A DNA stretch of 56,264 bases, the filler included, from Jimgerdemannia flammicorona (lineage: Eukaryota): NCBI GenBank assembly GCA_003990765.1. It is 3 parts of 3 records of this genome, joined end to end, with 100 filler letters (N's around TTAATTAATTAA, not from the genome) between each part and the next. Parts side by side here need not be neighbours in the genome. Positions count along the whole stretch, not along the records: positions 18,792 to 37,480 come from RBNJ01002135.1; 2 more parts are not named here. The stretch is one strand, 5' to 3'. Positions 3,522 to 43,150 of the stretch are shown piece by piece. A program made the translations under genes and the position numbers. Within the stretch, counting starts at the first letter, position 1. The number at the start of each line of letters is the position of its first letter. The notes beneath the pieces were generated by a model that worked only from the letters and a program-made list of their open reading frames with translations, was not told where the DNA came from and searched no databases.

Positions 3522-3552
3522 ATTGAAGAAATGTTGTAATAGAGACCCCAAC

Positions 3553-5409: not shown

Positions 5410-5490
5410 ATTGATAGTCACTGGACACTAAAAATGTAGTAAAAAGTGTTATCTGAGTCTTGTGTCACCCGAATGTTACTGGTGAAAGAG

Positions 5491-6790: not shown

Positions 6791-6819
6791 TATATAATAT
6801 AATTATAAAAATATATTTA

Positions 6820-7869: not shown

Positions 7870-7880
7870 ACTTCCTCCTG
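7870..7880 (-). promoter_or_regulatory. El1 polypurine tract
   Basis: Minus strand caggaggaagt directly abuts the 3' LTR. Confidence 0.7.
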
Positions 7881-7910
7881 AATAGGTGATTCATCCCTAA
7901 AGTATCCTAT

Positions 7911-13561: not shown

Positions 13562-13625
13562 GGTTGTTTGGGTAGTGACAGTTGTTCGTTGTTCAGCTTG
13601 AAAGTGAGAGATTCATCTTGAATTA

Positions 13626-13642
13626 CCAGCCAATGGGCACCA
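13626..13642 (-). promoter_or_regulatory. El1 primer-binding site (tRNA not assigned)
   Basis: TGGTGCCCATTGGCTGG starts 3 nt (ACT) inside the 5' LTR. A decayed copy is at the same position in El3 (about 42341-42357). Confidence 0.65.
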
Positions 13643-13645
13643 AGT

Positions 13646-14142
13646 TGTAATGTAGTGAATGCTTACTCTTGAAAGTACGTCAGATTTCTATATCTTGAAA
13701 ACTTGACTGTTCTGACTCTTGCAGAGTCTCTTGAAGTTGCAGGGGAGGGTGGGTGAGTTCGAAGTGTATCTGCTCACAGGCTTACTAGTTCCTTTGCTAT
13801 CTCTTTACTTTTGAACTATTTTGATCTGAGATTTATTTACTCTAAGATACTGGGTTATTTATACAAGTTTTGCTAGCTATAAGGTGGCTAAGTTATGACA
13901 ACGTTTTCTGTGAGTCAGCAAGTATAAATTCTCTACATCTGCCAGAATCTTTATGATCATAAAGGATTTACATCTGTAGAATTTCTACAGTTGCCAAAGT
14001 TTCTATGAATGTTAAAGTTTCTATACTTGTAAAATATGACTACTATTTGTAAGGCTAAGCTATATTGGGAATTGGATTCAGATACCGCAATCAAATGTCT
14101 AATTCCCCTGATTCATGTTACTAATTCAGATTGACCATCACA
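13646..14142 (-). repeat. El1 5' LTR
   Basis: tgtaatgtagtg...catcaca, 497 bp, a direct repeat of 7373-7869. Confidence 0.93.
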
Positions 14143-14400
14143 GTATTTTAGGAGTTGCTATAAATTTGTTATTATGTAAATAAGTTTTAACTGTATATTG
14201 AACATTTATCTCTTCAAGAAGACTTTTAACTTTTGAATGTTTTTCTTATTTAATAGTAGAAATAAGTCATTCATCAATCCAATCCTGTCCCCATTTCTGT
14301 AAAAGTTTTGTATAATAATATCTATGGTTGACACTTTCTGTAATAAGATTACTAGTCTCAGAATTACTATAATGATTATTTCTGAGTATCAAAATACTGT
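14143..14400 (-). pseudogene. Decayed Tc1/mariner-type transposase, N-terminal part (continues at 7372)
   Basis: Reads KLLQKWGQDW...EKHSKVKSLLEEINVQ..YLHNNKFIATPKI, matching the GKHxKxxSLLxDEDV..YLRxNKF pattern. Joins in frame across the El1 TSD. Confidence 0.65.
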
Positions 14401-14448
14401 AAGATATTATAAAGTTACAAAATCATAGATAGAGATCTTTTGTTGTTT

Positions 14449-14650
14449 TTAAAATTTTTTGTAGTACTCCAATATGAATATCATCATTGTTATCATCATC
14501 ACTCTCTTCTTCTTCATAGTTATCAATTTCATCTTCATCTTCAATATTATCATCTTTATCTTCATCATCTTCATCCTCAGTATCATCCTTACTATTATTA
14601 TCTTTCTTCTCTTCCTCATCTTCATTATTCTCTTTCTCTTCATCATTATT
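14449..14650. repeat. Low-complexity (TCA/TCT)n tract; reads as Asp/Glu-rich on the minus strand
   Basis: Visible trinucleotide-like repeats. May be part of the transposase N-terminus. Confidence 0.6.
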
Positions 14651-14969
14651 TTTATTTCTATAATTAATTATATATATTATTAGCTCTTTTAAATTTTTAT
14701 ATAAATTAATAATTTTCCTTATACCTTAATATATTTGGATCATTGCTATATTCAGATGGAAGTAGTAATGGTTATGATGAAGCTTGGGGAGTTAAGAGAC
14801 TTGAAGATTGTAAAAAAATTATCTTATACATATCTTCAATAATTCTTTATCTTTTTTAATATCAAATCTCCCTCAGTTGTATTACTTGTTTTGTCAATCA
14901 TCTCATTATTATATACTATACTATATATAATATAAAGTAAGGTTAATATAAAGATTTGTAGAATTCTTA

Positions 14970-16140
14970 TTAATTGAGACTTGATAGCAAAGAATAGTTG
15001 ATAGAGGCTCAGTGACAGAGAATAGTTAATGAAAGCTCATTGCTGCTGAATTCTCATTGATAGAGACTCAATGATAGAGAATGTTCAATAGCAGAGAACA
15101 GTTGATGGCAGAGAACAGTTGATAGTAGAGAACAGTTGATAGAGGCTCATCACTACTGAATTCTCATAGATGGAGGCTTGATGGCAGAAAATGGTTAATA
15201 GAGACTTGATGGCAGATAGAGGCTCAATAGCAGAGAACTATTGATAGAGGATTGTTACTGCTGAATTCTCATTGATGGAGGTACAGAGAATGATCAATAG
15301 AGACTCATTACTACTGAATTCTTGATGGCAGAGAATAGTTGATAGAGGTTTGATAGTGGAGAATAGTCAATAGAAATTCAATAACAGAGAATAGTCAATA
15401 GTAGAGAATAGTTAATGGTAGAGAATAGTTGATGGAGGCTCATCATAGCTGAATTCTCATTGATGGAGACTTGATGGCAGAGAACAGTTGATAGAGGCTC
15501 ATCATTACTGAATTCTCAATGGTAGAGAATAATTGATAGAGACTCATTGCTGCTAAATTCTCATTAATAGAGGCTCAATAATAGAGAATAGTTAATGGAG
15601 ACTTGTTACTGCTGAATTCTTATTAATGGAGACTTGATGGTAGAGAACAGTCAATAGAGACTCATTGCTGCTGAATTCTCAATAGCAGAGAACAGTTGAT
15701 GGAGGCTCAATGGTAGAGAATAGCTAATAGAGACTCAATGGTAGAGAACAGTTAATGGAGACTCAGTGGCAGACAATAGTCAATGGAGGCTCAATGGTAG
15801 AGAACAGCCAATAGAGACTCATTACTGCTGAATTCTTATTGATAGAGACTTGATGGCAGAGAATGATTGATAGAGACTCAATAGTAGAGAATAGTCAATA
15901 GAGGCTCAATAGCAGAGAATTATCAATGAAGGCTCAATAGTAGAGAATAGTCAATGGAAGCTTGATGGCAGAGAACCATCAATAGAGGCTCAATGGTAGA
16001 GAAATATTGATAGTGGCTTGTCACTACTGAATTTTCATTAACAGAGAATAGAGATATAATGGTAAAGAATAGTCAATAATGAGGGCTTACTAATATCATT
16101 AATTCTCATTAACAAATGCTTGTTATAGTGAAATTCTCCT
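14970..16140 (-). repeat. Minisatellite array B, same units as array A in inverted orientation
   Basis: Units gatggcagagaatagttgatagaggctc and ctgctgaattctcattga are reverse complements of array A units. Confidence 0.9.
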
Positions 16141-18791: not shown

Positions 18792-18965
18792 CTTATTATC
18801 TATAAAGAAAAGTCTAGATAATATCTCAGATACTACAGCCTAGGTATCCAGGATATGTTCAGCACTATATTACCCTTCCTACCAATGAGATATGATACCC
18901 ACTCTAGTTTAGGAGAGCATTTCCCCATTTCTCAGTTTTCACTTCTATTACTCTCTGGGTAATAA
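18792..18965 (-). mobile_element. Decayed LINE-D fragment (RT C-terminal region), left of the El2 insertion
   Basis: Similar to LINE-A about 1030-1190 and continues at 28112. Confidence 0.7.
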
Positions 18966-19777
18966 TATAATAACTCTCACTTCTACCCCTCTCTTATTCT
19001 TTGGATAATTAGGGAAGTGGACTATTACTTAGGGACTTAGTATACAATGTGTACCAAGAAGCCTTCAGTTTGAGGAAGCACTCACTTATAAGTAGTTATA
19101 GTGGCAGTGCCTTATCTTTCAAAGGTCTTTTTCTGGTTTGCCTTCTGTTTCAAAGGTCTTTCTCTTGTGCCCTATTTCGAGGGTCTTGTTCCTTGCTGTG
19201 CACAGACTGAATTCGCCTTGGAATTCAGGTTCAATGGGTTTACTTAAGTCTTTGGGGATTTATATACTAGTCTCAGTTCTGGCAGAAGTTAGCTAGGCTT
19301 CTGGAGTTTAGTCAGAAACACTAGAGTCACTTAGATGTCATTATTAAGACTCAGGGGAATGTGTGTGTGTGGGGGAAACTTGATTCTTATATCAAGGACT
19401 GAACTAAAACTGCTTTATTTCGAATAGAAACTGGGGGGTATTTATGCAAGTTGGTCTGCGATTTCTGACTAAGTATGAGTGACTAATTTGGTAACTATAA
19501 TGAGGTTTGTGATCATGACCTTTGTTAGGTGGTTTTTGGTAAAGAATATCTTTATGATCAGGACCTCAATTACTAGGCAATGATCAGCAGCTGTGACAAC
19601 TGTTGCTGTGGCACCGATTATTGGGGATAAGCTGGATATTGTTTTCTACATCGTTTTGCATCATTCATTCATTATTCATATGCCAAGCTTGATCATATGA
19701 TGACATTATCGTCGGGTCACGTGATTATTCATGATCATTCATTGCATCCCATCTGTTCACTCATTCGTTCTATTACA
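18966..19777 (-). repeat. El2 3' LTR
   Basis: Direct repeat of 27301-28111. Termini t(g>a)taat...attaca. Confidence 0.95.
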
Positions 19778-19790
19778 TCCTTCCCCCCTT
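19778..19790 (-). promoter_or_regulatory. El2 polypurine tract
   Basis: Minus strand aaggggggaagga abuts the 3' LTR. Confidence 0.85.
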
Positions 19791-20156
19791 AGAAATCAAC
19801 ATCCTCATTGATGGAGAAATTGAGAACCAGGGGAGAGAAAGGTGGGGAATCCTCCTCAGGGTTGTTACCATCTTCTTCAGGGACAGGGGGGGTGGTTACT
19901 ATGGCTTGCTGTCCAGGATGGAGAAGTCAATAAGGTCTGCAAATAGTTCTTACATTGGGATAGGTACTGGTATAGGGGTTCTCCATCTGATGTGGTTGGG
20001 GCCATCCAAGTAGAGCTCTTGATCTTCATGCCTGGGAATATCCATTTGAATAGGTAGTCCTTCAAAAAGGTTAGAGAGGCCTTGAAGCTATTGGTCAGGG
20101 TTGTCATTCAAGAGGGGACTCCAGTGGGGCTTGATATCAGTAGACTTGAGGACAAT

Positions 20157-20615
20157 CTAGGAGTTGGCTTCTTGGGCAACCTTGACTTCTAGGGCATTGA
20201 CCTCAAGGAACAAGAGGTTCTGGAAGTCCTTCAGTTGTATGTAGTTGAGGTTGGGGATTGTAAAGAGTGCATGGCACATGATTTGATGGATCTTCTTGGC
20301 AAGTCTTTGCTCATGCCTGTCTAGGTGAGTCCAGTCAGAGATCTGGTCTGTGGATAGGCCATTTGTGTGTTGGAGAAGCTGGTGACCAATTTCATATTCA
20401 TGCCAGATTTCTAGGCAGCTGGTAGCAAGGTAGGCCCTTTCAATAAGTTCATGGTGGTCAAGGACATACTGTCCTAGATCTGGGCTGGAGAGGTTAAGGG
20501 CCTCTGAGTGGTGGTTCCTTCCTTGGATAGCAACCTGGATGTGTCCAAAGAGGCAGTCAATCTGGCTTGGGAGGGGCTGGCTATGGTAGGCAGTTTGGCA
20601 GTAGGTGGCAGGCAT
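20157..20615 (-). CDS. El2 accessory ORF3, 152 aa, unknown function
   Basis: Stop-free frame from ATG (MPATYCQ...). Clear homolog at 43151-43689 and a distant homolog at 7911-8372. Confidence 0.75.
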   Translation of the reverse strand: MPATYCQTAYHSQPLPSQIDCLFGHIQVAIQGRNHHSEALNLSSPDLGQYVLDHHELIERAYLATSCLEIWHEYEIGHQLLQHTNGLSTDQISDWTHLDRHEQRLAKKIHQIMCHALFTIPNLNYIQLKDFQNLLFLEVNALEVKVAQEANS

Positions 20616-21304
20616 TCTTGTCTTGTCTTTTCTTTGTGAGGAGAGGGGGATGATAGTTGCAGGGTATTCTTGCCTTGGGTATTTATACTTATTCACCTGT
20701 CTGATGTGACCTTCCTTTGGTCACACTTTCTGGCAAAATGCATGACCTGTTGCTGTAAGCGGGGCATGTGCTAGTCACATGAGAAAATCCTGATTTCAAA
20801 GATATCATCACTTATAATTATGGTTACACAGAGTTAACAGGTCTTGGTCCACTTTATTTTTGCCTGGTTGGTGCATTTGCGAGGACTGGCCATCCTTGTC
20901 TAGGGCGAGGGCTCCCATTGTTGCGGCTGGAGCTTCAAACCTCTTGGAAATAGACTTTCTTATAATCTAAGGCAATTCCTAGTAACAATATCTGTCATGT
21001 GGATGGACTTAGACTGGTTTTGACATTGTTGGCTTTCCTAAGTTTCACATGAAGTGTCCGTCATCATCCAGTGGAGATGACACAGATGGCATAAAATAGA
21101 GTTGTTCAAATGTATTTTGCTATACTGTATGAGATTGTTCTTTTGCTCAGGTATCTTCTTGTTGGTTATCCATAGTGTTCCTTTTTCTCACAATATTTGG
21201 TATTATATGTTTCCAGATAAAATATGTGGTATCCTTCTGCTCACTGTGTACTCCTATACTTAGAGCTGTAGTTCCTTCCTTTGCTGGGGGGTGAGTGTTT
21301 CCAT

Positions 21305-21463
21305 GTAGTCCTGGAGGGCTTCACATGCATTCTTCAGGGCTTCTTCTTTTTCCCAAGTGGCATCATGAGTGGGATAACCCTTCCACTTGATCAGGAAAAA
21401 GCACTTGACTGTTTTGGGGTATTTGTGGACCTTGTGGTTAAGTACTTCCTTAATTTCAAATTC
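21305..21463 (-). CDS. Integrase C-terminal chromodomain
   Basis: EFEIKEVLNHK...FLIKWKGYPTHDATWEKEEAL; the aromatic-cage residues F, W and Y are retained. Confidence 0.9.
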
Positions 21464-24400
21464 CTCATGATCATTGATCCTAATTGGGGGTGGTGGTGGA
21501 ACTGTACACTCGGGGAATGGGTTCTCATAGTAGTCCACCAATTGGCTGATATGGAATACTGAGTGTACTTGGATATTGTGGGGAAGTTGCAACTTGTAGT
21601 TAACTTCAATGAATTTTTCCATAATCTTGTATGGTCCAATTCTTCTAGCATGGAGTTTCTTGGCTGGTTGTTATACCAGGGTGTCTGGGTGGAGGTAGTC
21701 TGTTCTAAGTATGACCATGTCACCAATATTGTAAGAGGCTTCTCTTCGCTTCAAGTTTGTGAACTTGGTCTAGTAGTCTTGTGCTTCTATGAGAGCATCT
21801 CTTGTCATTTACGTAAGGTCAGAAATGGTCTTGGTCAGATCTTGGGCTGCTGGGACTGCTGATTTCGCAGTAGTACTTGGGGTCCTTGGGTGTTGACCAT
21901 GGTTCAGAAAGAATGGCATCTTCTTTGTGGAGGTTTGCTGACTGTTATAGGCAAACTCAGCATGGGCTAGGCACTTGTCCCAATCATTTTGCTTGTAACA
22001 GCAGAAGATGCTAAGCATCCGTTTGAGAGTCCTGTTGGTTCACTCAGTTTGACCATCAGTCTGAGGGTGGTAGGCAGTAGAGAACTTCAGCTTGGTTCCA
22101 TGGAGGGAGAAAAATGCCTTCCAGAAGTTGATTGTGAACTTGGCATCTTGGTCAGATACAATGGTGCTAGGCATGCCATGTAGCCTGAATACTTGATTGA
22201 GGAAAATCTTGGCAATCTCTAGTGCTGTAGTGGTGGTCTTGGTGGGTACAAAATGGGCTTGTTTACTTAGGCAGTCCATGAATACCACAATGGCATCCCA
22301 TTCTGCCTTGGTCTTGGGGAGTTGGACAATGAAGTCCATTGCAATCTGGTCCCAATTGTGACTTGGGATAGGCAAGGGTTGCAGGAGTCCTGCTGGTAGC
22401 TTGTTACCACTTTTGAACCTTTGGCATATCTCACATGAGATCACAAAGTCTTTGATATCCTTGGTCATCTTTGGCCAGTAGAACTCTCTTGAGAGGAGGT
22501 TGTAGGTCTTTTTGAAGCCAAAGTGTCCTGCTGCAGGAGTATCATAGAGTTCCTGCATGATCTTGAGTCGCAGAGTATCATTGTTGAGTACAACCACTCT
22601 GTCATGGTCCCTATAAATAAGTCCATCACAGTAGGTGAATCTCTTGGCCATTTGCCTCATGGATTCTGGAACCTCAGCCTCTGGGTCTTGGCAGAATTGA
22701 AGGAAATTCATCAGGGGGCTGTCTTGCTGGTAGCCCTCCTTGATCATTTGGATAAGGTCTCCAATTACTTTGACCATGAAGACAAGTTCATCTTCCATAT
22801 ATCTGGAGAAACCATCAGCCACATGGTTGGTTTTGTCTGGGATATACTTGATTTTCATATCAAAGTTGGCAATGATTTCCATCCAGCGGGCTTGTCTGTG
22901 GGTCAGTATAGACTGTATGTGAATATACCACAGTGCATGGTGATCAGTGTAGGCCACAAATAGCTGTCCTAGGAGGAAATGACACTATTCCTGGAGTGCA
23001 GTGACAATAGCCAGGAGTTCCTTCTCATGGGTGGTATACTGGGTCTTAGCTGGCTTGAGCTTTTGGGAAAGGTAGGCCACTGGGTGGTCTTCTTGACTGA
23101 GTACTGCTCCAATAGCAATGTCAGAGACATCTGTGGTCAGAGTGAATGGTCTGGTAGGGTCAGGTGCAATTAGCACTGGGGCCTCAGTAAGGAGTCTCTT
23201 GAGATAGTCTATAGCCAGGGTGCATTCAGGGGTCAATTCAGCTTTGATGTTTACTCCTTTGTGTGCCAGACTGGTTAATGGAGCTGCAATAGCAGAGTAT
23301 CCTTGGATAAACCTTCAGTAATAACTAGCAATACCCAGAAAGCACTGGAGTAGCTTGAGGGTAGTAGGGATAGGGATATCCTTAAGAGCTGATACCTTTT
23401 GGGGGTCCACATTGATACCTTCAGCAGAGATGATATGTCTTAGGTATTCAATCTAGTCTTGGTAGAACTTGCATTTGCTCATCTTGGCATAGAGCTGGTG
23501 TTCTTGCAGGAGGGTCAGTACCTGTCTGAGATGGGTGTAGTGTAGCTCTACTGTCTTGCTGTAGATTAGTATATCATCAATATACACAAGGACACAGATG
23601 TTGAGGAGTGGTCCAAAGATGTCATTCATCAGATACTGGAATGTTGCTGGTGTATTAGTCAATCCAAAAGGCATGACTCGGAACTGGTAGTGTCCAAACT
23701 ATATTTGGAAAGCTGTCTTCTCAATGTCCTTCTCATCAATGAGAATCTGGTGGTAGCCATTTCGCAAATCCAGTAGAGAAAAGGTCTTGGCCTTGAAGAT
23801 TTGGTGTAGCAACTCATCAATCCTGGGCAAGGCATACCAGTTCTTGATAGTGATCTTGTTGAGGGCTCTGTAGTCAATACACATTCACAGAGAGCCATCC
23901 TTCTTCTTGACAAATAGAATGGGGGCTCCAAATGGAGAGTGGCTGGGTTCAATGTATCCTTGGGCTAGTAGTTTGGTCAATTCATCCTTGAGGGTCTTGA
24001 GCTCAGGTTGAGCCAGTTGGTAGATACTCTTGTATGGGAGTTCAGATTCTGGAATATGATCAATTCCATGTTGGATTTGGTGCTTGAGTGGAAGTCCTTG
24101 AGGATCTTGGAATACATCTTGGAATTCTTCAAACAGTTCTTGAGCTTCTGTTGGAATTGGGCTGCTTGTAGCTTCAGTGACTTCTTGTACTGTACAGATG
24201 AAGTAGGTGTTTCCCTTTTTTTGAGAGAGTCTCTTCATTTGAATGGTAGAGATGATTTCGATTCCTTGGTGGTTGGTACCTTCCTAGAGTGTCAGGGTGA
24301 TCTTTCTCCCTTTGTGGGTCAGGTTAACCTCATTGGTTCTCCAGTTGATGTCTGGGTTGTGCTGGGTCAACCAGGCTTTTCCTAAGATAATATCTTGTCC

Positions 24401-24973
24401 TGGGAGGTCTACAATGCTGAAATTCAACTTTTCTTGATATTTGCCAATCTTGAGCAAAAGGTCTTCACAGATCTTGGTCAATGGTGCAGTCTTTCCATCA
24501 CCAAAGATAACACTTCTTTTCTCAGTAGTTGGTCTGCTTCAGGCTCCAATTCTCTTGGCAGTCTTGGTGCTGATGTAGTTTTCAGTAGCACCACTATCAA
24601 GCAAGACATTGACATTTTGTCTGTAGACTTGGCCTGTGAACTTGATGCAACTGTCCTCCTTCTTGATGGTATTGAGCTCTTCATCCTCATTGTTGTCCCA
24701 ATTGCTGTCAGTCTCCTCGAAGTCAGTTTCTCCCCATCCTTCACAAGGAGGGTTGTCTTGTTTGGGTTCCTCAGCCTGTTGAGCTTGGTGTTTCTCAGAT
24801 TGAATTTTGAAAACTTTGGAGAGGCATGCATGGCATTCATCAACATATTCCATGCAGTACATTTGAATAGAATGAGGGCATCATCCACATGGTGTATAAC
24901 CATCTGCAATTCTCTTGTACCAGTTTTCATCATCTTCCTTCATGGTAGTGACCTTTTGACTGGGAGGTTTGTT

Positions 24974-25385
24974 GGTAGATCCAAACCCTTTCTTGCCATG
25001 GTCTGTCTGGGAGAGTTCGGGGACTTCTTCAATAGTGAGATCTTGATGGATTTCTTCAATAATTGCTTGGGTAATTCTTTGGCCTACTTTGACTTCAAAT
25101 GATGTGTCTCCAAAATTTTGCAAGATGACACAGATTTCGCCAGTAAATCCTTGATCAACTACTCCTCCTCCTAGCCCAATGTTGAACTCTTTGGCTAGGC
25201 TGCTTCGCTCAGTAAGGTGGATGTATGTACCTCTGGGAGCTTATATTGCAATTCCTGTTCGCACTGTAGCATTGGTACTTGGTGGGATGGTGAGGTCTTG
25301 GCTGCTATAGAGGTCATATCCAGCATCAGTTGGGTGGGCCTTAGTGAGGATGGTAGCCTTGTACCATATCTTCTGTACTTTGATG
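24974..25385 (-). pseudogene. dut: dUTPase domain within El2, between the gag zinc knuckle and the protease (one internal stop)
   Basis: Motifs AGYDL, ERSSLA, GVVDQGFTGEI, QRITQ and HGKKGFGST. Confidence 0.92.
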
Positions 25386-27283
25386 ACATTCTTGGGGTTC
25401 TTCTTTCCTGGGCCTTCTCTAATGACAGTAATATTCTGGTTACTGGGTTCACCTGTTCTATTCTTTTTCTCAGGGCATCTGAATGAGATGTGTCCTGCCT
25501 TCTTGCAGATGAAACACAATCCCTTTTCGCAGAGCTGCTTCTTTTCGTCCTCGGTGGGAGGTCTGGGTCCTCTGGGGTTTCGCTGGTTCCTTTGATCATA
25601 TCTTTGATCATTTCTCTGATCATTTCTCCTGGTAGGATTTCTCCTATCTTGGTTATCCTTCTTGTGTTCTTGATTTCGTGGGGCTTGTGCAGCAAGGATT
25701 TCACAGGCTCTTCTTTGTACTTGGGCAAAACACCATGAGTAGTGGGGACATCCTTGGGGAAGACCTTGTTCCATGATCTTCTGGGTGAGCCAGTCTGGTA
25801 GGGCTGCAAAGAGATGGTTGGCTCTGGTACCATTGATGGCCAAATTGTTCTCCTGATAGATAAGTCCAACAGTTTTGAGATAGGCATCCATTCTGGTGGC
25901 AAAGGTCTCTAGATCCTCTTCGCCATTCTTGTGGAACTTCATCTGGGATAGTTTGTTCAAAGTTTCTTATATGTTGGCTGCATTTCGGAATTTGGTCAGT
26001 AGCAAGGCCTTGAGTCCTGGGCCTGCTTCATGGTCATCCCAACCTGGTCTATTGTTGCCAGGTACTTGTCCATTGACTTGAGGGCAGGCTTTCCATGTTA
26101 CTGAGTGTTGTTCCAAGGTTCACCAGAATTCAGCTGCTGTTCCAGTGAAGAATGTGGCTACTGTTTCTACTTGTGCTGCTGATGTGGCAAACAGCTGTTG
26201 AAGGGTGCTGTTCTGGTTGTTGGTGAGTATTCCTATAGAGACTCGGTTGTCATTCTATTGGTTTACTCAGTAGCCTGTGTCGACTGCATTGATAAAGTTT
26301 TCAATGTCACTGTTTTTTCCACTGAATGTTGGAATTCGCAAGGTCTTGATTGGTTTGTTCTGTTCAGCAATCTGCCCTACTATCCCTGCTAGTACTGCTA
26401 GCTGGGTGGTCAGTGCTGTAATGTTGGCATCTACCATTATGTTGACTATTGGTGGTGGGCCTGTTGGGGTAGATTCTCCTGAAGATTGTTCTGCTTGGTA
26501 GGGTTGTGGTGCTGTATGACTTGGAGTTACTTGATTCCTGGATATTAAGTCAAAGAGTCCTGTGAGAGAGGGTAAACCAAACCTCTGTATAGGTGGCTGA
26601 GTTGGTTCTGGGGTCTGATCTTCTTGACCTGTAGTTCCTTGGTGACTATCATCAGACTAGTAATCTGTAGAGTCTTCGTCTGACTCCCTTCCATGATGAG
26701 ATAGTGCATCCTCATACTGACTAGGTCCTTCAAAGAGGATATCAGTCTCTGGCTGGGTTGATAGGCCTGCTCCTTGTTCAGCAGTAGGGGATGGGTGGCC
26801 TGCTTGCTCGTTCTCATACCTAGTTATGGCAGAGGTGTAGTATACAACTAACCTGTAGTAGAGGGAGGTCTTGGTTGGGGTATGATGATATCTGTCAGAG
26901 GCAATCCACTCAGCAGCTGCTTCTCTTGCAGCAGGGGGTGTGATATAATCTAAAAAATCCTGGGTGGCTGCAGTAGTAGATTCTGAGGTCCTAGTGATTC
27001 CAATGTGTCCTCAGAGGAGTTCATAGAACCTATGGCAGCTAACAATATTCCTAAGTCCTGGGTGGTATGTCCTAAAGACCTGATATAAATCTCTATAAGC
27101 CTGGTCAATTACAAGCTGGCGGATGTCTGTGTCTGTAGTTTCCTGGTACCACCTGGTCCTAATGGCAAGGGCTTCTCTGACTCTGGTTTGAGGATCCACA
27201 GTTGGTTCTGGAGGTTACTCCTGTCCAAGGTTGGTCTTGTTCCAACTTCAGGAGTATGTTCTTTGGTGCCTGCTTGATTAGTA

Positions 27284-27297
27284 ATCCACTGCTACCA
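27284..27297 (-). promoter_or_regulatory. El2 primer-binding site, initiator-Met-like
   Basis: TGGTAGCAGTGGAT, 3 nt inside the 5' LTR; resembles the complement of eukaryotic tRNA-iMet 3' ends (TGGTAGC...). Confidence 0.7.
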
Positions 27298-27300
27298 AGT

Positions 27301-28111
27301 TGTAATAACTCTCACTTCTACCTCTCTCTTATCCTTTGGATAATTAGGGAAGTGGACTATTACTTAGGAACTTAGTACACAATGTGTACCAAGAAGCCTT
27401 CAGTTTGAGGAAGTGCTCACTTATAAGTAGTTGTAGTAGCAGTGCCTTATCTTTCAAAGGTCTTTTTCTGGTTTGCCTTCTGTTTCAAAGGTCTTTCTCT
27501 TGTGCCCTATTTCAAGAGTCTTGTTCCTTGCTGTGCACAGACTGAATTCACCTTGGAATTCAGGTTCAATGGGTTTACTTAAGTCTTTGGGGATTTATAT
27601 ATCAGTCTCAGTTCTGGCAGAAGGTAGCTAGGCTTCTGGAGTTTAGTCAGAAACACTAGAGTCACTTAGATATCATTACTAAGACTCAGGGGAATGTGTG
27701 TGTGTGGGGGGAACTTGATTCTTGTATCAAGGACTGAACTAAAACTGCTTTATTTCGGATGGAAACTGGGGGGTATTTATACAAGTTGGTCTCTGATTTC
27801 TGACTAAGTATGAGTGACTAATTTGGTAACTATAATGAGATTTGTGATTGTGACCTTTGTCAGGTAGTTTTTGGTAAAGAATATCTTTATGATCAGGACC
27901 TCAATTACTAGACAATGATCAGCAGCTGTGGCAACTGTTGCTGTGGCACCAATTATTGGAGATAAGCTGGATATCATTTTCTGCATTGTTTTGTATCATT
28001 CGTTCGTTATTCATATGCCATGCTCGATCATATGATGATGTCATTGTCAGTTACGTGATCGTTCGTAATCGCTCATCATGTCCTATCTGTTCACTCATTC
28101 ATTCTATTACA
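27301..28111 (-). repeat. El2 5' LTR
   Basis: tgtaataactctcac...ctattaca. Confidence 0.95.
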
Positions 28112-29480
28112 AATAAGGAGCCATATATCAAAAAATTAATCCCCAGATACTAAACTGCCTCACCCACTAGGACAATTGTTCTGATCACATCTCTACCCAC
28201 CAATCCACCACTGAGCATCAGGGTCTCATACTTATATCTGTTGAGCTTAGTCTCTGAGTACTCTTCATACCAATCCACTGTCCCCTTTAAGGTAGCCACA
28301 TCCTCTATAGAGCTCAATCCAACTATTATATCATCTACAAATACTCCCACCTTCTAATTTACCCTGAGAACTATAAGCCCCTCTATGTCTAATTCTGTCC
28401 AGCAAGGGCTATAAAGATAGAGTATAGAGAATAGGTAATAATGAATCACTCTCTTCTCAGAGGAAATAATACTCCTCTATATTCATTAATCAGGATTACC
28501 ACCCAACTCACCTCTAACAGACTGATCAGAGACTGCTGAAAGCTCAAAGAAATATCAATATTCTTTAGAACTTTATCTAACCATACTCTTCACATCCTAT
28601 TATAGGTCTAGAAAAACCAATCTATCATCTACCCTAGCAGCCCTAGTCTTCTCAATAATGCTATAGACTTACACCATCTTGTTTCAAATCAGGCAACCTC
28701 TAATGAAGTCCCTTTGTTCCTCTCCCAGCATCCTTTGAGCCCTTCTCCTGCAACTAAGTAACAATGATCTTCATTACCAGCTTACAATCAATATCCAGAA
28801 GCATAATCAGTCTCCAGTTCTTCTACTTCTCTCTCCTCTCCTTATTCTTAAATAACAGAGCCACCAGACCCAAGTTCTGTCCTTCTATCCACCTTTCTGA
28901 TTCAATAATCTCATTATATATCTGCTTCATCTTCTTCAAAACTATCTTCACTTCAACCATCTGCTTCTAGAAATTCTATAGCAGGCCATCCTTCCCCAGT
29001 GATGTTCTAAGGCTAGTCTCTGCCAAGATCCTAAGAATCTTGCCCCCTACACTGGCCCCCCCAGTCCTTCCAGCTCCTCTGCTGGACTTGGGTACTAGTT
29101 CTCCAGATGCTGCTCAATGTCTAGTTCATCTGCCCCACCCTTCTTCTCACTCCACAGTATCTCCCCCCACTCACTCAGCTAATCCAAAATGTCCTGAGTT
29201 CTCACCACCAATATCTCTTCTCTATCCAGCATATAATCCCAACACTGCCTCACCCTTCTAACTCTAAGGAGTCTCAACAGAAACTTCATTGGCCTTTTGC
29301 TTTTCTCTAGACCCTGCCATCTTAGCCTGGCTACCATATCCTGTATCTGCTCACTCTCTTCTACTCTCAGTATACTCTGCAGTTTCTCTACCTTCATTTT
29401 AGTATACTGAACTCACTAGTCCTCTGCTTCTAAAACCTCTAACAGAACAGACTAGTCCACTCTTTCAGAAGTCTTTCTAA
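28112..29480 (-). mobile_element. Decayed, 5'-truncated LINE-D fragment (RT region)
   Basis: Reads GVFVDDIIVGLSS..WYEEYSETKLN and ARLRWQGLEKSKRP, homologous to LINE-A/B ORF2. Confidence 0.8.
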
Positions 29481-29889
29481 TCTATATAATGCCCATTATA
29501 TATATCTTTTTTTTACTAATTACTCTAGAGTCTTCTAAAAATCCTCAACCAGTACTAGTCTAATTACTAAGAGTACAGCTTGTGAATACTTCAGAAGTAC
29601 CAGCAGACCTACTATCAAGAGATCTGATCTAGCCAGACAATACAGAAGACTCTGTTCAAACTTTTGATAAACTTATAAAAGAACTTAAAGTTTCTCCCAT
29701 CTCACTCTTATCTAAACCAGCAGATCCTCTAAGTCCAGTACCTTCAAGAATACCAAGAGGAGTATCAGTATTCTAAAGACTAAGTATATGTCCTTCAAAC
29801 TCCTTAACTTACAGTAGTTCAACCAGACTTTATATATTTATAAAAAGTAAAATAGATTTAGAAACTAAAGAAGAACTAGAAGACAGTAA

Positions 29890-30500
29890 TGATGAAATGA
29901 CAGTATCAATACCTACATTTATAGGATATCTAGAAGAAGACCCAAAGAAATTCCTAGATACTCTTGAAGGAATTACAGCTCTGAAGAACCTTGCTCTCTG
30001 AAGACAAATTGTAGTCTTCAAGATTCAACTGAGGGAACTAGCCAAAGAAATCTTCAACAGAATCTTAAATGATTCAAACTCAGACCTAGGATAAGTCATA
30101 GCTGATGTAAACTACTTTGTAGACCAGTATAAAGCCATCTTCCACTGACTCATTGAGAAGTATACAGAAACATAAACTCACTACAAAGTCTAAGAATCTA
30201 TTATAGATATGAAGATGAATCTTAGAGAGTCTCTATAAGTATTCTTTACAAGAACTCAGAAGAGAATGTATGCTACTAGTTTCAGTACTACTAATCAAGA
30301 TATCATTGATTTAGTAATCTTTATAAATGGTATTCCTCCTAACATTGCTCAGTATATCTTTACCCTTGGTATTAAGAAGTCTGATGAATAATTAGATGTA
30401 GTTCAAGAATACTTTGATGTTAAGTAAGAAATTACTTGAAATAACAATAAGAGAGAAGACAAAGAAGACCTCTTGATCAAGACTCTCTAAGGAATTCTCC
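29890..30500 (+). pseudogene. Decayed retrotransposon gag-like sequence; its host element is interrupted by LINE-B and resumes at about 36887
   Basis: MTVSIPTFIGYLEEDPKKFLD..LRELAKEIF resembles the gag N-terminal PxFxG..EDPxxF pattern. Many stops. Confidence 0.5.
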
Positions 30501-31008
30501 AAGAAAATCTAAGAGAAAAAGAATCTACAAATGAATAGAAGAATAAGAATGAAATCTATGACCTCAGTTCTAAATTAGACCAATTGGTTGAGCAAATTGG
30601 AAAACTCACTACATGTAAAAATTGGAGCTATATATAAGAGAGAAGATGATAGAATTAAGATTCAAAAAGGCCAAGCCAAGAAATCCACAAAAAGGACTCT
30701 GAAGATCTATAATCTAAAAGATAATATCCTAGCTCTCATTAGATATATAATCTGCCAAGAATGGACAAAGGATGTCATCAACTTCATGAAAGCCCTAGAC
30801 TTTACTGAAAGAAGAGAAATTAGCTATCTCTGAGATCCCTCTATTGGAGCCAGATGGTTGTATTTTGACATTAGAGCTTGGAGACTTATAACTATAGAAG
30901 TCTCAGCTCAAGAACAGCCTGCTCTCAGCAAGGCTATTGCACAGTATGTCTTACTATACTCTGAAGCCTGATCCTCAAAAAAAAGTCTACAAGAAAGATA
31001 TAGTCTAT

Positions 31009-31052
<44 letters not shown>

Positions 31053-31099
31053 GTCACTTGGACTCATCCTTTATTACACCCATCTATCCCATAAAAGTA

Positions 31100-34000
31100 C
31101 AGTGAACCCACCCCCTATCCAATCCCCCTAGGGGGGCCCCTCTCTTCTACCCCTTCTTGATGAAACACCACTCTATTGAATACAATCCCCACACTCCCAC
31201 CACTGTGTTCGCATATCCTCACCACCAACCCTCACCATCACCCCCCTGAAGGGCCCCAACCTAGCCACCATCCCATCATCAGATCCCCTAACAGCTCCTC
31301 CCACCTTAGAACCTTCTTCTGCAGACCCATCCACCACCCCTCCTCAAATACAAATAGCCAATGTCCTGCCAAACCCACCCAAACTGCTAACACCCACCCC
31401 CCCCACTAGCCAAGATCTTAAGACCTCTCAGTGATCCCCTTCACCCACCAGCCTGCACTCCATGCCCAGTCTATTCCCTATTTCAACCCAAAAGTCCCCC
31501 AAAACCTCACACTCCCCCAGCCAATGTTCTGGCATCTGCACCAAACCCCCAGCTTGCCCTACAGTGTAACATTCCTCACAATCAAAATAGCCACCATCCA
31601 CCAGATGCCCGGTGTGGAAATTCAGCATGACATTCCTCCACAGCATTCGCCACCACACCACCTAGAACTTGGGGGGAAGCCACTGCCATACCTCAGCACT
31701 CCAAGACCAGATACCTGCCCTGTCCCACCCCTCGCCAATCCCAACTGCCTGCCATCTGCTTGGCCAAAGATCCTGGCCAAGACCCTGCTGATACTCCACT
31801 CCATCACCAATGTCAAAGGCAGCAAGTGGAGTACCCCCCAGTAGCAGTCTATCCCATCGCTACATACTAGGTCCCCACAATACCTCCCTCTCATTGCCTT
31901 GCCAGCACAGCCCAATTCTGTGTACTCCATCGACCACACCCCACCAAAAGCCCTTAAACCTCAGCCTCTGAATTCCATTGAGCCCTACCAAAGAGAGTAG
32001 ATCTCCTGATGACCCTCAGGGGGAGGTTCTTATCTCCCACACCTTCTGCAGCAGAGGCACCCAACCCCCTCCTCGCAGTTCAGCCACTCTCCTCAACCAC
32101 CAGGCTCACAAGCAGTGCAACCTCTTAGGGAAATCCACAAGGCCAAGACCTCCTCTGACCACCAGTGTCGCAAGAGTATCCCAACTGATCTGGGACCTCC
32201 TCCCTGCCCAAATCCAATCTCTAACCATCTTTGTCAACCTCTTCACCACCCAAGCTGGGAAGTCTAGGTAGTAGGCCACATACCACAGCTTGGGGAACCA
32301 ATATGTATTCAGAATTGATACCCGCTCTGCTAGAGAGATATGGCGGCCTCCCCAACCTCGAAGGGCCTCCCCCCAAACAGCCACTCTGCTCTCCCACTAC
32401 ACTCTTGGTAAGACAGAGCCATATACAGAGAGGAAGATGCCCAGATACCATACCACCTCACTAGTAGGGACAATTGTTCCAATGATGTCCCCACCCACCA
32501 GCCCATTCCCTAACACTATAGTCTCATACTTATGCCAGTTGAGCCTTGCCCCAGAGTGATCCTCATACCATTCTACCATCTCCTTAAGTGCCTCGACATC
32601 CGCCACAGACCTAAGGCCAACCACCATATCACCTGCAAAGGCTCCCACCTTCCATACTATGCTGTAGATAGAGAGTCCTACCACCTTCTGATAAATCCTA
32701 TCCATCAATGGTTCCAGTGAGAGGGCATAAAGAATAGGGGACAGGGGGTCCCCCTGAGGAACCCCTCTTCTCAAGATAAATGCCAGACCATGGTGACCAT
32801 TATACATCAGTGCTGCCTGACTGCCCTCTAACAGATTCAACATAGAAGTCTGAAATCCTGGAGGAACACCAATACAATCCAACACCTTGCCCAGCCAAAC
32901 CCACTGGACCCAGTCATAGGCCTTCTCCTGGTCCAAGAAGACCAACCTTCCATCCAGACCACAAGCCCGGACCCCTTCAATGATACCATGCACCCATGCA
33001 GTCCCATCTCTTATAAGTCTGCCTCTAACAAAGCCCTGCTGCTCCTCCCCCAGCACCTGTTGGGCAACCTTCTGTAGCCTTGCAACAACCACCTTAGTCA
33101 CCATCTTCCTGTCCATGTCCAAAAGCATGATCGGCTGCCAGTTCTTCCAGTCTTCTCTCCTCCCCTTGCCTTTGTACAATAAAGCCACCAGCCCGAGGTC
33201 CTGCTCTCCAACCCACTCACCACTCTGAAGAACAAGATCACAGAGAGCAGTCATCTCACCTAATATGCCAGGGACCTTAACCATCTTCTTCCAGAAGTCC
33301 CATGGTAGTCCATCCTCCCCTGGTGCCATTCCATTTTTAGTTGCCACAAGGATGCTCTGGACCTCCTCAGCTCACACCAGCAAGGCCAAGTCATCCAGTC
33401 CAGCTACTTGCAGTGGCCTCCATTCCCCTAATGTCTCTTCAATAGCTGCCTCATCAGCACCCCCTTCTTCCTCACTCCACAAACCCTACTATCTCTCCTT
33501 CAAACCCCCTAAGATTTGTTGCATGCCATGTACCATGTCCCCATTGGCATCTAGGACTCCATCCCACTGATGTCTCACCCTCCACACTTGGAGCAGACAG
33601 GACAAATACCTAGAAGGCCACTCACCCTCCTCAAGCTCCTGCCACTATAGCCTAGCAGCCATACCTCACATATACACCTCCTCCTCTTCTCTCAAAATCT
33701 GTTGCAGTTCCATTATCTCCAGTTTAATATGTGCTAACCTCCAGTCCTCCACTCTAGCAGAAGTAAGCAAACCTGCCCAATCCATTTGCAATCTCCTCAG
33801 CCTGTTGGAAGCACACCTTGTGTACTTCCTCCTCTGTCTCCCAGCCTCTCTCCCAGCCTCTCTCCAATAAACCCTCGCAGCCTCTTTCAATCTCATCCAA
33901 TGGACACCCACTGACAAACCCTCACACCTCCAGCAAGACACCTTCGCCTGAATGTCCTCTACCTATGAATCCCACAACCCCTTCTCAGCCAGCAGAGAGG

Positions 34001-34748
34001 AGTTAAGGTGCCAATGTCTGGGTCTATCTCTACTCCCCCCAAACTGCCCCTGTCCCAACAGTCCCCAGTGATCAGACCATGGGCACCATTCCACCTCCAA
34101 TACCTTCCAAACATCAGACCACCAGTATTCTGCCATCAGAATCCAGTCAATCCTTATACCTAAGCCATTCACCCAATATGTATAGACCCTGGAGTTGCCC
34201 CATCATGTTCTGCCCATATCCCCTAAGGAGCTCAGCCTCTCTACCTCCTCCCATGCATCCAGGCCTCCACTTCTCTCTCCTGTACCCCTTCCACTATCAG
34301 TTCTGTCCAGATGCTGATCCTGGACCATATTAAAGTCCCCCCCAAGCACATTAATCCCTTCTGCCAAGAGAAAACCCCCCTCCAGCAGCTCTCTAATCTA
34401 TGCAATCCTCTCACCCCTAACTGCAGGGCAGTAGCAAGAGTCAACCCTCACTGACTCCCACCCCAGCTGATGCCAATCTCCCCAGACCAAGCAATCACCC
34501 CAGCTCCCAATACCCCCCAAGTCTCCTCTACCCTTCCTCACCAGGATTGCCACTTTTCTAAACCAAGCAGTAGCCCCACCCCATTTCCTAGTCCACTCAA
34601 CCTGATTGTCCTCATCCTCACACCAAACATCCTGCAGTAAAAAGAGATCAGCCTCCAATCCCTTGAGCCAATTAAAAATGTTCTTATGCTGCCCAGATCT
34701 CCTTAGCCCATTCACATTCAAAGAGAAAATGTTGGTTGTACTTTTCAT
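31100..34748 (-). pseudogene. LINE-B ORF2 (APE-RT-zf), disrupted
   Basis: MKSTTNIFSLNVNGL, IRIDWIL, WSDH, LDQEKAYD, GVPQGDPLSP, FDCEEC...PEHWLGEC. The 3' end is approximate. Confidence 0.9.
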
Positions 34749-34779
34749 AAGAAATAATGTCATATACCAATCCCATCCT

Positions 34780-36817
34780 CTATAAGTCCACATTCGGCCC
34801 CTCCTGCACCAAGTCCAAGTCATGTTCAGCAGCTAGTTCCCTTTCTCCAGCTTTCTGTACCTCCAACCCTCCCAGAAGTTCTACCATTGCCCCATCTTCG
34901 TGCTTCTCAAAGTCCTCATGATATTCCAGACAGGCCTCCTGCCAGAACTGCAAGCTATGCCACTCCACCCAACAGTATGCCACCCACTCCCCAGCGACCA
35001 CTGCCAGCTCAGCCCTCCTCACCTCATCAACCTCATATCCCTCCTCCTCCAGGAAAATCGAAAGAATCTCCCCCTTCAGTGCCTCCACCACTCCCTCACC
35101 ATGCAAAACCTGTGCCCAGTGCTTCTCAGGCATTATCCACAGGTCCACTTCCCCCAAAGTCTCAGCCATGAGGTTATCCATCACCTTGCTCATCTACAGC
35201 AAGTTCCCCACCTCCTTCCCTCCCAGAGTCCCCAGCTGTCCTACATCCAACATCATGGTGTCAGCCCCTATACTGGCAGCCTCATCCCACTCCTCCTCAG
35301 GGACATCCACCAGCTCATCCTCACCAACCACCACCATCTGACCCTCTTTTTCCACATCTGGGACCCCAAAGTGCACTCGCTGGGCCCCCTCCATCAGCGT
35401 ATCCTCTGTTGGCCACCTCTTTCCAGCTGGGCCCCTCCTGATAAGTGGGGGGGAGGTTGCATCCAGCTCTGGCTTCCAGACCTCGAAAGTGCTGTCAGTA
35501 AAGGGGTTCTTGCTCAGCATCTTTTCAGCCCCTTCCTTGCCCACCTCCTCCTCCCCAACCTCTTTACTTGCCCAAACACTGGCTTCAACCCCCCCAGACC
35601 CTTCAGCTCCCACTGCCTTCTGCTTAGCCTCTACATTCATACTTGCAAGTAGCTCTCTCTGCCTCCAGCACCCCTGTGCCCACTCCCACTGCTTCCTGTC
35701 AGTACAGATGTATTTCCCATCCACCACCTCCAGATGCATCGACTCCTCATATACCTTCCAGGCCCTTGCCCTTCTCTCTACAGCGCCACTCATCTCCTCC
35801 AATGCCTCCAACAAGTCCTCCTCCTCCTCCTCACTCCCCTTCACCCTTGACACCTTACAGATGAATGCCCCCCACATCAGTATGGAAGGCCAGTCACTTG
35901 CCTTCCCTGTGGCCTCCTTGCCCACCAGCCGAATCCTGACATCAATGTCACCTGTCCTGATCGTTGTCCCCTCCCACATCTGAAAACCGATATCCACCAC
36001 ATCACTATACTCAATCATCACCTCCTCCACCCTCTTCCTAGTCTCCTCCTTAGTCACTGTGGGCACCCTCTTCACCAGAAGCTGCACCACCCTGGGGTCC
36101 AATCGCAAGCACCACACCATGGGAACTACCACCTCCCCAACTACAACACCAGTCTTCAGTACCTCATCCAGTGGACCTGCCTCCTCAAAGCCCACCTCGA
36201 CTCCCTCCAGACCCTTCAAGAACTTCACTGAGGCCACCCCAGCCACCTGCTTCGAAATAAGCCCCAGAACCATCCTCGCCATCACTGCTAAGCCCTGGAA
36301 GCACAAGGTCACTGCAAACTCCAAGATCAACTTCTTGAGCAATGGGGTCACCACCAGCCCCGTTATACCATCTGCCAGGTCCCCCTTCTGCATTGGGAAC
36401 CCCTGCCCCACCTGGCCATCAGCTATCATATCTCTTTTTTTTTCCTGATTCCCTGTCACTCCCATCAACAGTCACACCCCCAGCCACAGCACCTCCAGCC
36501 CCTATGCCTGCACTCCCTGCTGGAGCACCACTCTCCTTCCCAAGACTCACCTTGCCCTTCCCCTCAGCAGCACCAGCCCTATTACCAGCTGGCCACCCAC
36601 TCTCCTTGACCTTGTCTGTGAAGCTCAGGAGACCAGATCTTCTCCTACTGCCACTGGACACTGGTCCCCCTCCAGAGCCTTCTCCATTCTTTGGTCCTCC
36701 GAAGGCCCCCATCTCCAGGCCATAACCCCTCCCCACCTGCTGCCAGTCAAAGGCCCTAGATCCACCTGACCTAGTATGCACACTGGTATGGTCATTGCTC
36801 TCTATATTGCTAGTCAC
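34780..36817 (-). pseudogene. LINE-B ORF1, disrupted
   Basis: Fragments 36419-36817, 35194-36468 and 34780-35193 are homologous to LINE-A ORF1. Confidence 0.8.
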
Positions 36818-37480
36818 CTTTCACCAAAACGATGTCAAAAGTGTTGCCTGAGTCTTGTGTCACCTGAATGTTACTGGTGAAAGGTGTATAGTCTATAATC
36901 TTTGTAGCCTTTGAGTTGAATCTACATATTTGCCCTGAAAGTATAATACTCTTTGATATAGAACTTAGCAGGCAGCCATCCTAAGGAATATATATTCAAC
37001 TGATCTCAAGATCCAAACTTGCAAAACAAGAAGTCACTACAGAAGGAGATACAATAGACTCTGAATACACAGGTAAAAATAAGATCATCTTGAAGAATAG
37101 TAATACTGAATAGATTTGAATCTACAGAGAAGAGAAAATTTTCCAAGCAGTCTTCATCAAGATTGAGATACTCCAACTTCAGAAAGTTCCCAAACTGACC
37201 CAAGGCACAATATAGATTAAAAGATTTAGGAGCTTAGATAAGAAGAAAGTATATCTCCTTCAAGTCAACTACTTTAAGAAGAATATACTCCAATAAGTAT
37301 ACTACCAATCAGTCAAACTCCTCAAGAATCTCATTCTAGAAATAAGAGAGCAGACCATCTTCAATATCTTTATACCACTAGACCCCAGGAATCTCTTCTT
37401 CAAAATAAATGAAGATCTCAAAAACCTTGATATAGAAGGACATATATTCTCAGATAAGATGAATCCTTTTTTTTTTTTTT

Positions 37481-37580
37481 NNNNNNNNNNNNNNNNNNNN
37501 NNNNNNNNNNNNNNNNNNNNNNNNTTAATTAATTAANNNNNNNNNNNNNNNNNNNNNNNNNNNNNNNNNNNNNNNNNNNN
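37481..37580. other. Assembly spacer N44-TTAATTAATTAA-N44
   Basis: Identical design to the spacer at 18692-18791. Confidence 0.98.
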
Positions 37581-43016: not shown

Positions 43017-43150
43017 TTTGGTAGTGGTAGAGAGGAGAGTAAGGAGATCCAGAACTCTCCAGTCTATGAGGTTCTCCTCTATAAAGTAGAAGATGAAGGT
43101 AGGATTTTGAGGAGGTCTGACTTAGATACTGAGGTCTTGGAATACTGAGA

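Follow-up and report, generated by a model that had tools for sequence, protein, structure and literature searches.

What lies between the protease and the dUTPase in Ty3/gypsy retrotransposons that encode both enzymes, and is it functionally tied to either of them? The question arises from a 56,264-nucleotide (nt) stretch, filler included, of the Jimgerdemannia flammicorona genome (GenBank assembly GCA_003990765.1), hereafter the window, in which three parts are joined by spacers of 100 N and positions 18,792-37,480 come from RBNJ01002135.1. Three elements in the window, El1, El2, and El3, carry at this place a Cys/His-containing module, here called X. We read X as a genuine family of ~45-60 residues that belongs to the linker between protease and dUTPase in dUTPase-carrying Ty3/gypsy elements, probably holds one zinc, and may serve as an accessory knuckle tethering the dUTPase; to this reading, taken as a whole, we assign a probability of roughly one half.

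Three copies of X in the window

Translation of the minus strand at three loci returned, letter for letter and stops included, the peptides quoted in a preliminary description of the window (which had not given the strand), and the plus strand gave unrelated peptides. The copies are as follows.

24824-24922, minus strand: X of El2, 33-residue core, C-P-H-x12-C-x2-C, with one in-frame TGA
24770-24952, minus strand: full aligned X domain of El2, comprising N-terminal helix, knuckle, and start of the C-terminal helix, as delimited by the family alignments and the family AlphaFold2 (AF2) model
11614-11712, minus strand: X of El1, 33-residue core, with one in-frame TAG
39738-39836, minus strand: decayed X of El3, with Y in place of the ligands H, C, and C, and L in place of P

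In an ungapped alignment, the El1 and El2 cores agree at 18 of 33 residues (55%), which matches the earlier hand count. This makes X the most similar of the segments compared between the two elements, ahead of reverse transcriptase (RT; 44%), dUTPase (40%), RNase H (39%), and the H2C2 finger (37%), with protease (25%) and the integrase core (24%) the lowest. El3, much more decayed, has 9/33 residues in common with El2 and 11/33 with El1, and its ligand codons TAT/TAC/TAT are each a single G>A or C>T step away from CAT/TGC/TGT, so that the ligands are recoverable by reversion as had been proposed. When scanned with a profile of the family, El2 (24770-24949) scored 71.3 bits and El1 (11557-11727) 74.9 bits, both being seeds of that profile, and El3 (39699-39854) scored 5.4 bits (E 0.005). 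A six-frame scan across the window with the family profile revealed no fourth copy.

A family of related domains in database proteins

As the preliminary description had suggested, we searched for relatives by sequence profile and by structure. The initial queries were the dUTPase-X-protease part of El2 (1736 candidates) and the protease-X-dUTPase part of El1 (4063 candidates), which led to one protein, P0004, and to 23 proteins, respectively. P0004 is a distant intact relative of El2 (33% identical overall) and carries C-P-H-x12-C-x2-C between its dUTPase (residues 566-693) and its protease (826-955). A dUTPase is present in 23 of the 24 proteins retrieved, and six of those 23 carry X (P0004, P0005, P0006, P0007, P0008, and P0010), as scored by a profile that includes these six.

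An X profile built from eight sequences was then run against 1.84 billion representative proteins at E<=1e-3 and yielded 30 proteins with a best E of 3.3e-13, all showing the same Cys/His pattern. Across 36 aligned database sequences, Cys is invariant at ligand 1 (36/36). At ligand 2, His predominates (27), with Cys in 8 sequences and Tyr in one; at ligand 3, 35 sequences have Cys and one has Tyr. Cys occupies ligand 4 in 28, the other 8, of the CxC type, having been gapped by the aligner. The Glu after the hairpin is kept in 30 of these sequences. The ligands are therefore retained in intact members, and their loss there had been named in advance as grounds for rejecting a functional link. 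Only four ligand positions are conserved per domain, and conservation beyond them extends to W/Y-x-K-x-I, G-Y-x-P, and aromatic-x-x-E.

Three spacing subtypes can be distinguished, namely C-P-H-x12-C-x2-C (subtype 1, which includes the window copies), C-P-H-x10-C-x2-C (subtype 2), and C-P/A-x-C-x5-[C/A/Y]-A-E-x2-C-x-C (subtype 3). Subtype 2 has basic residues before the first Cys, and several of its relatives (P0008, residues 334-470; P0043, 29-120; P0044, 128-290; P0053, 58-300) bear two to four tandem CxH...CxxC knuckles, for example CPHG, CAHD, and CNH/CQH, within the linker between protease and dUTPase. In P0009 (850-1030) and P0010 (880-1100), whose linkers span 550-600 residues, about four repeats of C-x4-C-x8/9-H-x2-C are followed by basic residues; by profile, P0009 bears the repeats but no X.

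Further searches were negative within their scope: a word-based search with the X region alone against 5.8 billion proteins gave no candidate, a look-alike search of the ESM Atlas turned up nothing usable with the X of P0004 or with the fragment P0044, which bears a knuckle array, and none of 158 matches to a pattern derived from one of the family alignments in Joint Genome Institute (JGI) metagenome contigs was confirmed by tblastn. Taken together, sequence conservation indicates that X is a real protein family and more than a chance similarity.

X lies at the junction of protease and dUTPase

El1 and El2 were delimited as minimum extents from 300-nt cores of their long terminal repeats (LTRs), and the domains of all three elements were mapped with Pfam. 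The features of El2 are listed first, followed by those of El1 and El3.

18968-27602, minus strand: El2, minimum extent; LTR cores 18968-19267 and 27303-27602, a direct repeat 96% identical, spacing 8335
25469-25519, minus strand: gag/nucleocapsid (NC) CCHC zinc knuckle of El2; Pfam zf-CCHC E 0.0011, residues 994-1010, sequence CFICKKAGHISFRC; distinct from X
24974-25360, minus strand: dUTPase of El2, upstream of X; PF00692 E 3.6e-29, residues 1047-1175 (frame 19500-28498, minus)
24311-24670, minus strand: retroviral-type aspartyl protease of El2, downstream of X; RVP_2 E 2.8e-7, gag-asp_proteas E 2.4e-7, residues 1277-1396
22409-22582, minus strand: integrase H2C2 zinc finger of El2; PF17921 E 9.9e-21; distinct from X
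7372-13944, minus strand: El1, minimum extent; LTR cores 7372-7671 and 13645-13944, a direct repeat 94% identical, spacing 6273
11857-12192, minus strand: protease of El1, upstream of X; RVP_2 E 4.3e-6, residues 1270-1381 (frame 7000-15999, minus)
11068-11448, minus strand: dUTPase of El1, downstream of X; PF00692 E 2.5e-24, residues 1518-1644
39985-40131, minus strand: protease fragment of El3, upstream of X, in another frame; RVP_2 E 1.7e-4, residues 1623-1671 (frame 36000-44997, minus)
39186-39569, minus strand: dUTPase of El3, downstream of X; PF00692 E 7e-21, residues 1811-1938 (frame 36000-44999, minus)

El2 thus reads gag, NC CCHC, dUTPase, X, protease, RT, RNase H, integrase (H2C2, core, and SH3), and chromodomain, and El1 reads CCHC, protease, X, dUTPase, RT, RNase H, and integrase; of El3 only a 5' part is present, running from a protease fragment through X and dUTPase into the beginning of RT. 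The mirrored order noted previously, protease-X-dUTPase in El1 and El3 and dUTPase-X-protease in El2, is borne out by these maps. On Pfam score, all three dUTPases belong to the trimeric type (El2 101.6 bits, El1 85.9, and El3 74.8; cut-off 22), and El1 and El2 qualify as Ty3/gypsy (Metaviridae) elements by their LTR pairs, CCHC, protease, RT, RNase H, and an integrase located after RT.

The window elements are dead and full of C>T/G>A transitions. The coding region of El2 forms a single frame with 20 stops per 1747 codons and zero frameshifts, and the differences between paired LTRs are almost all transitions, 12 as against 0 transversions in El2 and 17 as against 2 in El1. When compared with the near-identical intact fragment P0028, El2 is identical at 444 of 480 residues over gag-dUTPase-X, and 27 of the 36 mismatches, including all 4 stops in the compared stretch, are explicable by C>T/G>A alone. 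The decay of the elements is of the cytosine-deamination kind, resembling repeat-induced point mutation.

Both neighbours of X are visible in eleven sequences, four of which read dUTPase-X-protease (El2, P0004, P0039, and P0051) and seven protease-X-dUTPase (El1, El3, P0005, P0006, P0007, P0008, and P0010). In addition, P0036 runs into a D-S-G-A-S-G protease motif in the alignment, and P0031, a close relative of El1, has X followed by dUTPase. Among the 30 profile matches, a Pfam neighbour is visible in 14 (dUTPase before X in 8, X before dUTPase in 3, and protease before X in 3), and local profiles add two more (P0046, X before dUTPase; P0056, protease before X) for a total of 16, the remaining 14 being uninformative fragments. 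X beside RT, integrase, or gag alone occurred in 0 of the 16 matches with a visible neighbour. In the sample examined, X is confined to the protease/dUTPase junction of dUTPase-bearing gypsy elements; it was seen only with dUTPase, while protease is universal. The earlier statement that X always sits between dUTPase and protease therefore holds for every case with a visible neighbour, but it perhaps rests on two or three independent evolutionary events; moreover, if a polyprotein offers three junctions, the prior chance that X would independently come to lie in the same one a second time is about 1 in 3.

El1 is flanked on both sides by tandem arrays with 14/28/45-nt periodicity (6086-6815 and 14924-16080), as if it had inserted into a satellite array.

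Lineages and subtypes of X

The presence of X in two different gypsy lineages, which the preliminary description had recognized, was confirmed, and the order of protease and dUTPase is swapped between them. Lineage A joins El2 and P0004 (RT 61% and protease 42% identical), and lineage B unites El1 with P0005, P0007, P0008, and P0010 by protease (39-59%) and RNase H (44-52%); across lineages, identities amount to 41-48% for RT and 20-38% for protease. In a dUTPase tree with an arbitrary root and a weak deepest split (74/75), El1, El3, and P0031 group with P0005 (98/93) on the lineage-B side. El2/P0028, P0004, P0039, P0036, and P0049 fall into another clade (95/96), which also holds the dUTPases of X-less elements.

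Judged from the sequences, the subtypes of X do not follow this split of dUTPase and protease. More specifically, the X of El1 is of subtype 1, as in lineage A, and the other members of lineage B carry subtypes 2 and 3; likewise, the X of El2 is 55% identical to that of El1 and 33% to that of its lineage-mate P0004. This distribution is compatible with an old exchange as well as with an ancestral subtype 1 that was retained. A recent exchange at the DNA level between El1 and El2 was rejected, as only 64 of 99 nt are identical and 13 of the differences are transversions. Of the mobile module proposed beforehand, the old form is hence compatible with the data, as is ancestral retention, and the recent form is not. 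Movement of dUTPase and X as a single cassette was rejected as well, since their relative order is inverted between lineages and the dUTPase of El1 groups with lineage B, whereas its X is of the lineage-A subtype.

Predicted fold of X

AF2 applied to a 38-row alignment of X gave a model with a predicted local distance difference test score (pLDDT) of 94.3 and a predicted template modelling score (pTM) of 0.74. Assignment by DSSP placed a helix at residues 11-21, a bridge at 29/35 around C-P-H, and a further helix that begins at residue 46, immediately behind Cys45, with which the CxxC opens. In the predicted arrangement, an amphipathic N-terminal helix would be followed by a C-P-H-G (or C-P-x-C-G) knuckle giving two ligands, then by a short hairpin with an aromatic residue and the conserved Glu, and finally by the C-x2-C (or C-x-C) pair, which would open a long charged helix; the sequence of the helix after X is rich in K/R/E/Q. 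The arrangement modeled in this way is treble-clef-like, and we infer from the conserved ligand pattern that X probably binds one zinc ion. A second AF2 model, of the dUTPase-X-protease fragment P0039 (10-row alignment, overall pTM 0.33), placed X at pLDDT 79-85 between flanks below 50, with the protease part below 40, indicating that X behaves as an autonomous unit in the prediction.

Relation of X to known domains and systems

In structure comparisons, Foldseek matched the family to nothing in the PDB or in BFVD at E<=1e-3. VIA-align, run against 48,161 chains, reached a Z of 4.5 at most, with none at 5, and its list consists mainly of generic helical matches. Among eight X members searched in Pfam at E<=10, only scattered single-member matches appeared (Phage_zn_bind_2 at 0.0055, BACK, and Nal1_C). 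Consistent with the earlier suggestion that the domain may be undescribed, no match was shared across the members.

X was considered as a copy of either zinc motif already known in these polyproteins, and both assignments were rejected, as the preliminary description had also held. The NC knuckle (PF00098) has the spacing C-x2-C-x4-H-x4-C, which differs from that of X, and no zf-CCHC match was obtained for the eight members at E<=10; a true CCHC is separately present upstream of X in the El1 and El2 polyproteins. The integrase H2C2 finger (PF17921/PF09337) resembles X in belonging to retroelement Pol, in its zinc-finger character, and in closing with C-x2-C where a helix begins, but it has the form H-x3-7-H-x23-32-C-x2-C, belongs to the integrase N-terminus, and is separately present in El1, El2, and P0004. 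In El2 the real H2C2 lies >700 residues downstream of X, and hhalign of X against the H2C2 fingers of the elements (PF17921) gave a probability of 0.3% over 7 aligned columns.

The best sequence match in the PDB, a non-significant one (E 0.23), was finger 1 of muscle LIM protein, with CP-x-CG-x-x-VY-x-AE aligned to the first knuckle only. LIM domains (PF00412) consist of two contiguous fingers with eight ligands, C-x2-C-x16-23-H-x2-C-x2-C-x2-C-x16-21-C-x2-C/H/D. The likeness to LIM and other treble clefs lies in the predicted knuckle, hairpin, and ligands at a helix N-terminus; however, X has one predicted zinc site, whereas LIM has two. Assignment of X to the LIM domains was rejected, given four ligand positions, no H-x2-C-x2-C-x2-C continuation, and no Pfam LIM match.

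Closer in context are two systems in which a zinc knuckle accompanies a dUTPase. In betaretroviruses a knuckle is covalently joined to a trimeric dUTPase in the gag-pro region beside the protease, and the NC-dUTPase fusion of Mason-Pfizer monkey virus is reported to bind oligonucleotide (PMC1802613). The order NC(CCHC)-dUTPase-...-protease of El2 and P0028 is the betaretroviral one. The betaretroviral knuckles, however, have the canonical NC spacing C-x2-C-x4-H-x4-C and precede the dUTPase, whereas X is additional to NC, lies on the protease side of dUTPase, and shows no sequence similarity to the NC knuckles. The LTR retrotransposon Juno of bdelloid rotifers has dUTPase between protease and RT and then an extra Zn knuckle (PMC5408684), so that here, too, an extra knuckle in Pol is associated with a dUTPase; compared with X by description only, it differs in having the knuckle between dUTPase and RT and in its animal host.

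Fungal Gypsy elements with dUTPase have been described, among them PosPlaTy3-3/-4/-5 of Postia placenta, elements of Phanerochaete, and Tmt1 of Tuber, with the dUTPase either at the Pol N-terminus, as in El2, or between protease and RT, as in El1 and El3 (PMC2864245). The same source suggests independent acquisition of dUTPase and names CCHC and HHCC as the only Zn motifs, the word "zinc" occurring 0 times in its main text. A description of the X motif was found neither in full-text literature searches nor in passages from the main text of that paper. X thus appears to be a hitherto undescribed domain family, and its type is a familiar one.

Accessory zinc knuckles are common in retroelement polyproteins, and the principle behind X is not new.

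A possible tethering role for X and its alternatives

The part of our reading that concerns function is tentative: X may be an accessory knuckle and a tether for dUTPase, a proposal that we consider possible and hold with some doubt. In this scheme, polyprotein processing would leave X attached to dUTPase, and X would anchor its partner either on nucleic acid or on the replication machinery, the nucleocapsid/reverse-transcription complex, in a manner analogous to the betaretroviral NC-dUTPase and to the extra Zn knuckle of Juno. We favor tethering because X was seen only with dUTPase, because its relatives form knuckle arrays, because an NC-dUTPase binds oligonucleotide, and because Juno has a comparable knuckle. 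Arrays of knuckles or C/H repeats such as those of subtype 2, P0009, and P0010 are typical of nucleic-acid binders. An extended version, in which X would be a dedicated adaptor coupling dUTPase to the template/reverse-transcription complex or to the protease precursor, and would have been moved or retained as an independent module across gypsy lineages, appears unlikely to us. If it were true, the repeated pairing of knuckle and dUTPase in betaretroviruses, Juno, and the X-bearing elements would reflect a general need to tether retroelement dUTPase to its substrate complex.

Several observations weigh against the tethering reading. X is absent, with profile scores of <=1.9 bits, from 17 of the 23 dUTPase-bearing polyproteins, and junctions of both orders lack a Cys/His module: P0022 (63-335; source name Phlebia brevispora protein) has dUTPase and protease 44 residues apart, and P0018 (1-185), which shows the protease tail, has ~10 residues between protease and dUTPase, both being chromodomain gypsy polyproteins. 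X lies on either side of dUTPase, and its distances vary from ~25 to ~295 residues to dUTPase and from ~40 to ~570 to protease. The profile seeds came from the protease-dUTPase query, the hits are mostly short fragments, and the co-occurrence sample is narrow and composed of related proteins. The mean net charge of X is near zero (+1.3 upstream, +0.5 in the core, and -0.4 downstream), and the subtype-1 copies in the window range from neutral to acidic. X is not confidently docked on dUTPase in the AF2 model of P0039, for which the pTM was 0.33 and the alignment shallow (10 rows). Binding of zinc and of nucleic acid, the identity of the processed product that would carry X, and any binding partner are points that we infer. 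Given the X-less junctions, the variable gaps, and the few independent lineages, the functional tie of X to dUTPase or protease claimed in the preliminary description is plausible only; the restriction of X to dUTPase-bearing elements speaks for it, and the 17 of 23 polyproteins without X, the X-less junctions in both orders, and gaps ranging over ~25-570 residues speak against it.

Some of the same features would suit a passive role, in which X, as a zinc-stabilized hinge followed by a long charged helix, merely parts the trimeric dUTPase from the dimeric protease, so that both can oligomerize and cleavage sites are exposed, and has no ligand of its own. X always stands at the junction of two oligomeric enzymes, it is predicted to be autonomous between low-confidence flanks, the helix behind it is long and K/R/E/Q-rich, its net charge is near neutral, and its gap to both enzymes is variable. 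Against this, the related P0018 and P0022 manage with junctions of 10-44 residues without X, and a spacer would require neither the tandem knuckle arrays of subtype 2 nor the conservation beyond the ligands, which between El1 and El2 exceeds that of RT (55% versus 44%). We regard a pure spacer as doubtful, if a serious contender to tethering.

X could instead act on the protease as a pro-segment-like neighbour that delays or promotes its dimerization and autoprocessing; the transframe region of human immunodeficiency virus type 1 (HIV-1) acts as such a protease-regulating segment. In seven sequences (El1, El2, P0004, P0006, P0007, P0030, and P0056), X does lie 39-64 residues from the protease, on the dUTPase-facing side of it, but in subtype 2 (P0008, P0010, P0037, and P0048) it is 110-570 residues from the protease and ~25-40 from dUTPase. 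Protease is moreover universal in LTR elements, whereas X was seen only with dUTPase, and between El1 and El2 the protease is poorly conserved (25%), whereas X is the most conserved segment. Regulation of the protease thus seems improbable.

The similarity of X between El1 and El2 would also be expected if X bound a host protein, for targeting, import, or evasion of silencing, such that elements of the same host keep a similar X. Two elements of one genome and different lineages share 55% of X, as opposed to 33% for El2 and P0004 within one lineage, and the X of El1 is of subtype 1, as in lineage A, even though its protease, RNase H, and dUTPase group with lineage B. Retention of ancestral subtype 1 gives the same pattern, however, and we give a hypothetical host partner a slim chance.

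Finally, the view that there is no domain at all, and that X is either decayed sequence alike by chance or a degraded copy of the NC CCHC or H2C2, can appeal to short peptides with stops in the window copies, to the non-significant score of El3 alone (5.4 bits), and to a C-terminal V-x-x-C-x-x-C that superficially resembles the end of H2C2, but it is practically refuted by the 30 database matches down to E 3.3e-13, the ligands kept with their spacing in intact open reading frames (ORFs), the hhalign result against H2C2 (0.3% over 7 columns), the want of any zf-CCHC or H2C2 match for eight members at E<=10, and the AF2 pLDDT of 94.

As a conserved putative zinc module seen only beside dUTPase, in two lineages of opposite domain order, X offers a handle on the role of dUTPase in LTR retrotransposons, in that its four ligands can be mutated, and localization of dUTPase, processing, and uracil in cDNA can serve as readouts. 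For annotation, X is a segment of 45-60 residues in Pol that Pfam models leave blank, and the profile would fill this gap in fungal-type gypsy elements. The three spacing subtypes are a possible marker of recombination between retroelement lineages.

Other features of the window

Three ORFs match RVT_1, at 1128-2270 (minus strand, E 6e-25), 32400-33371 (minus strand, E 2e-22), and 52662-53426 (plus strand, E 3e-16). The ORF blocks are GC-rich (0.50-0.53), with an extreme GC skew of about -0.45 on the plus strand at 1-6000 and 32000-36000 and of +0.45 at 50000-54000. In appearance they resemble copies of a non-LTR element, similar to long interspersed nuclear elements, with a strongly G-rich coding strand. 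At 44763-45735, a 9-nt-periodic array is open in three plus-strand frames, giving ORFs of 311-314 residues, one of which is without a Pfam match.

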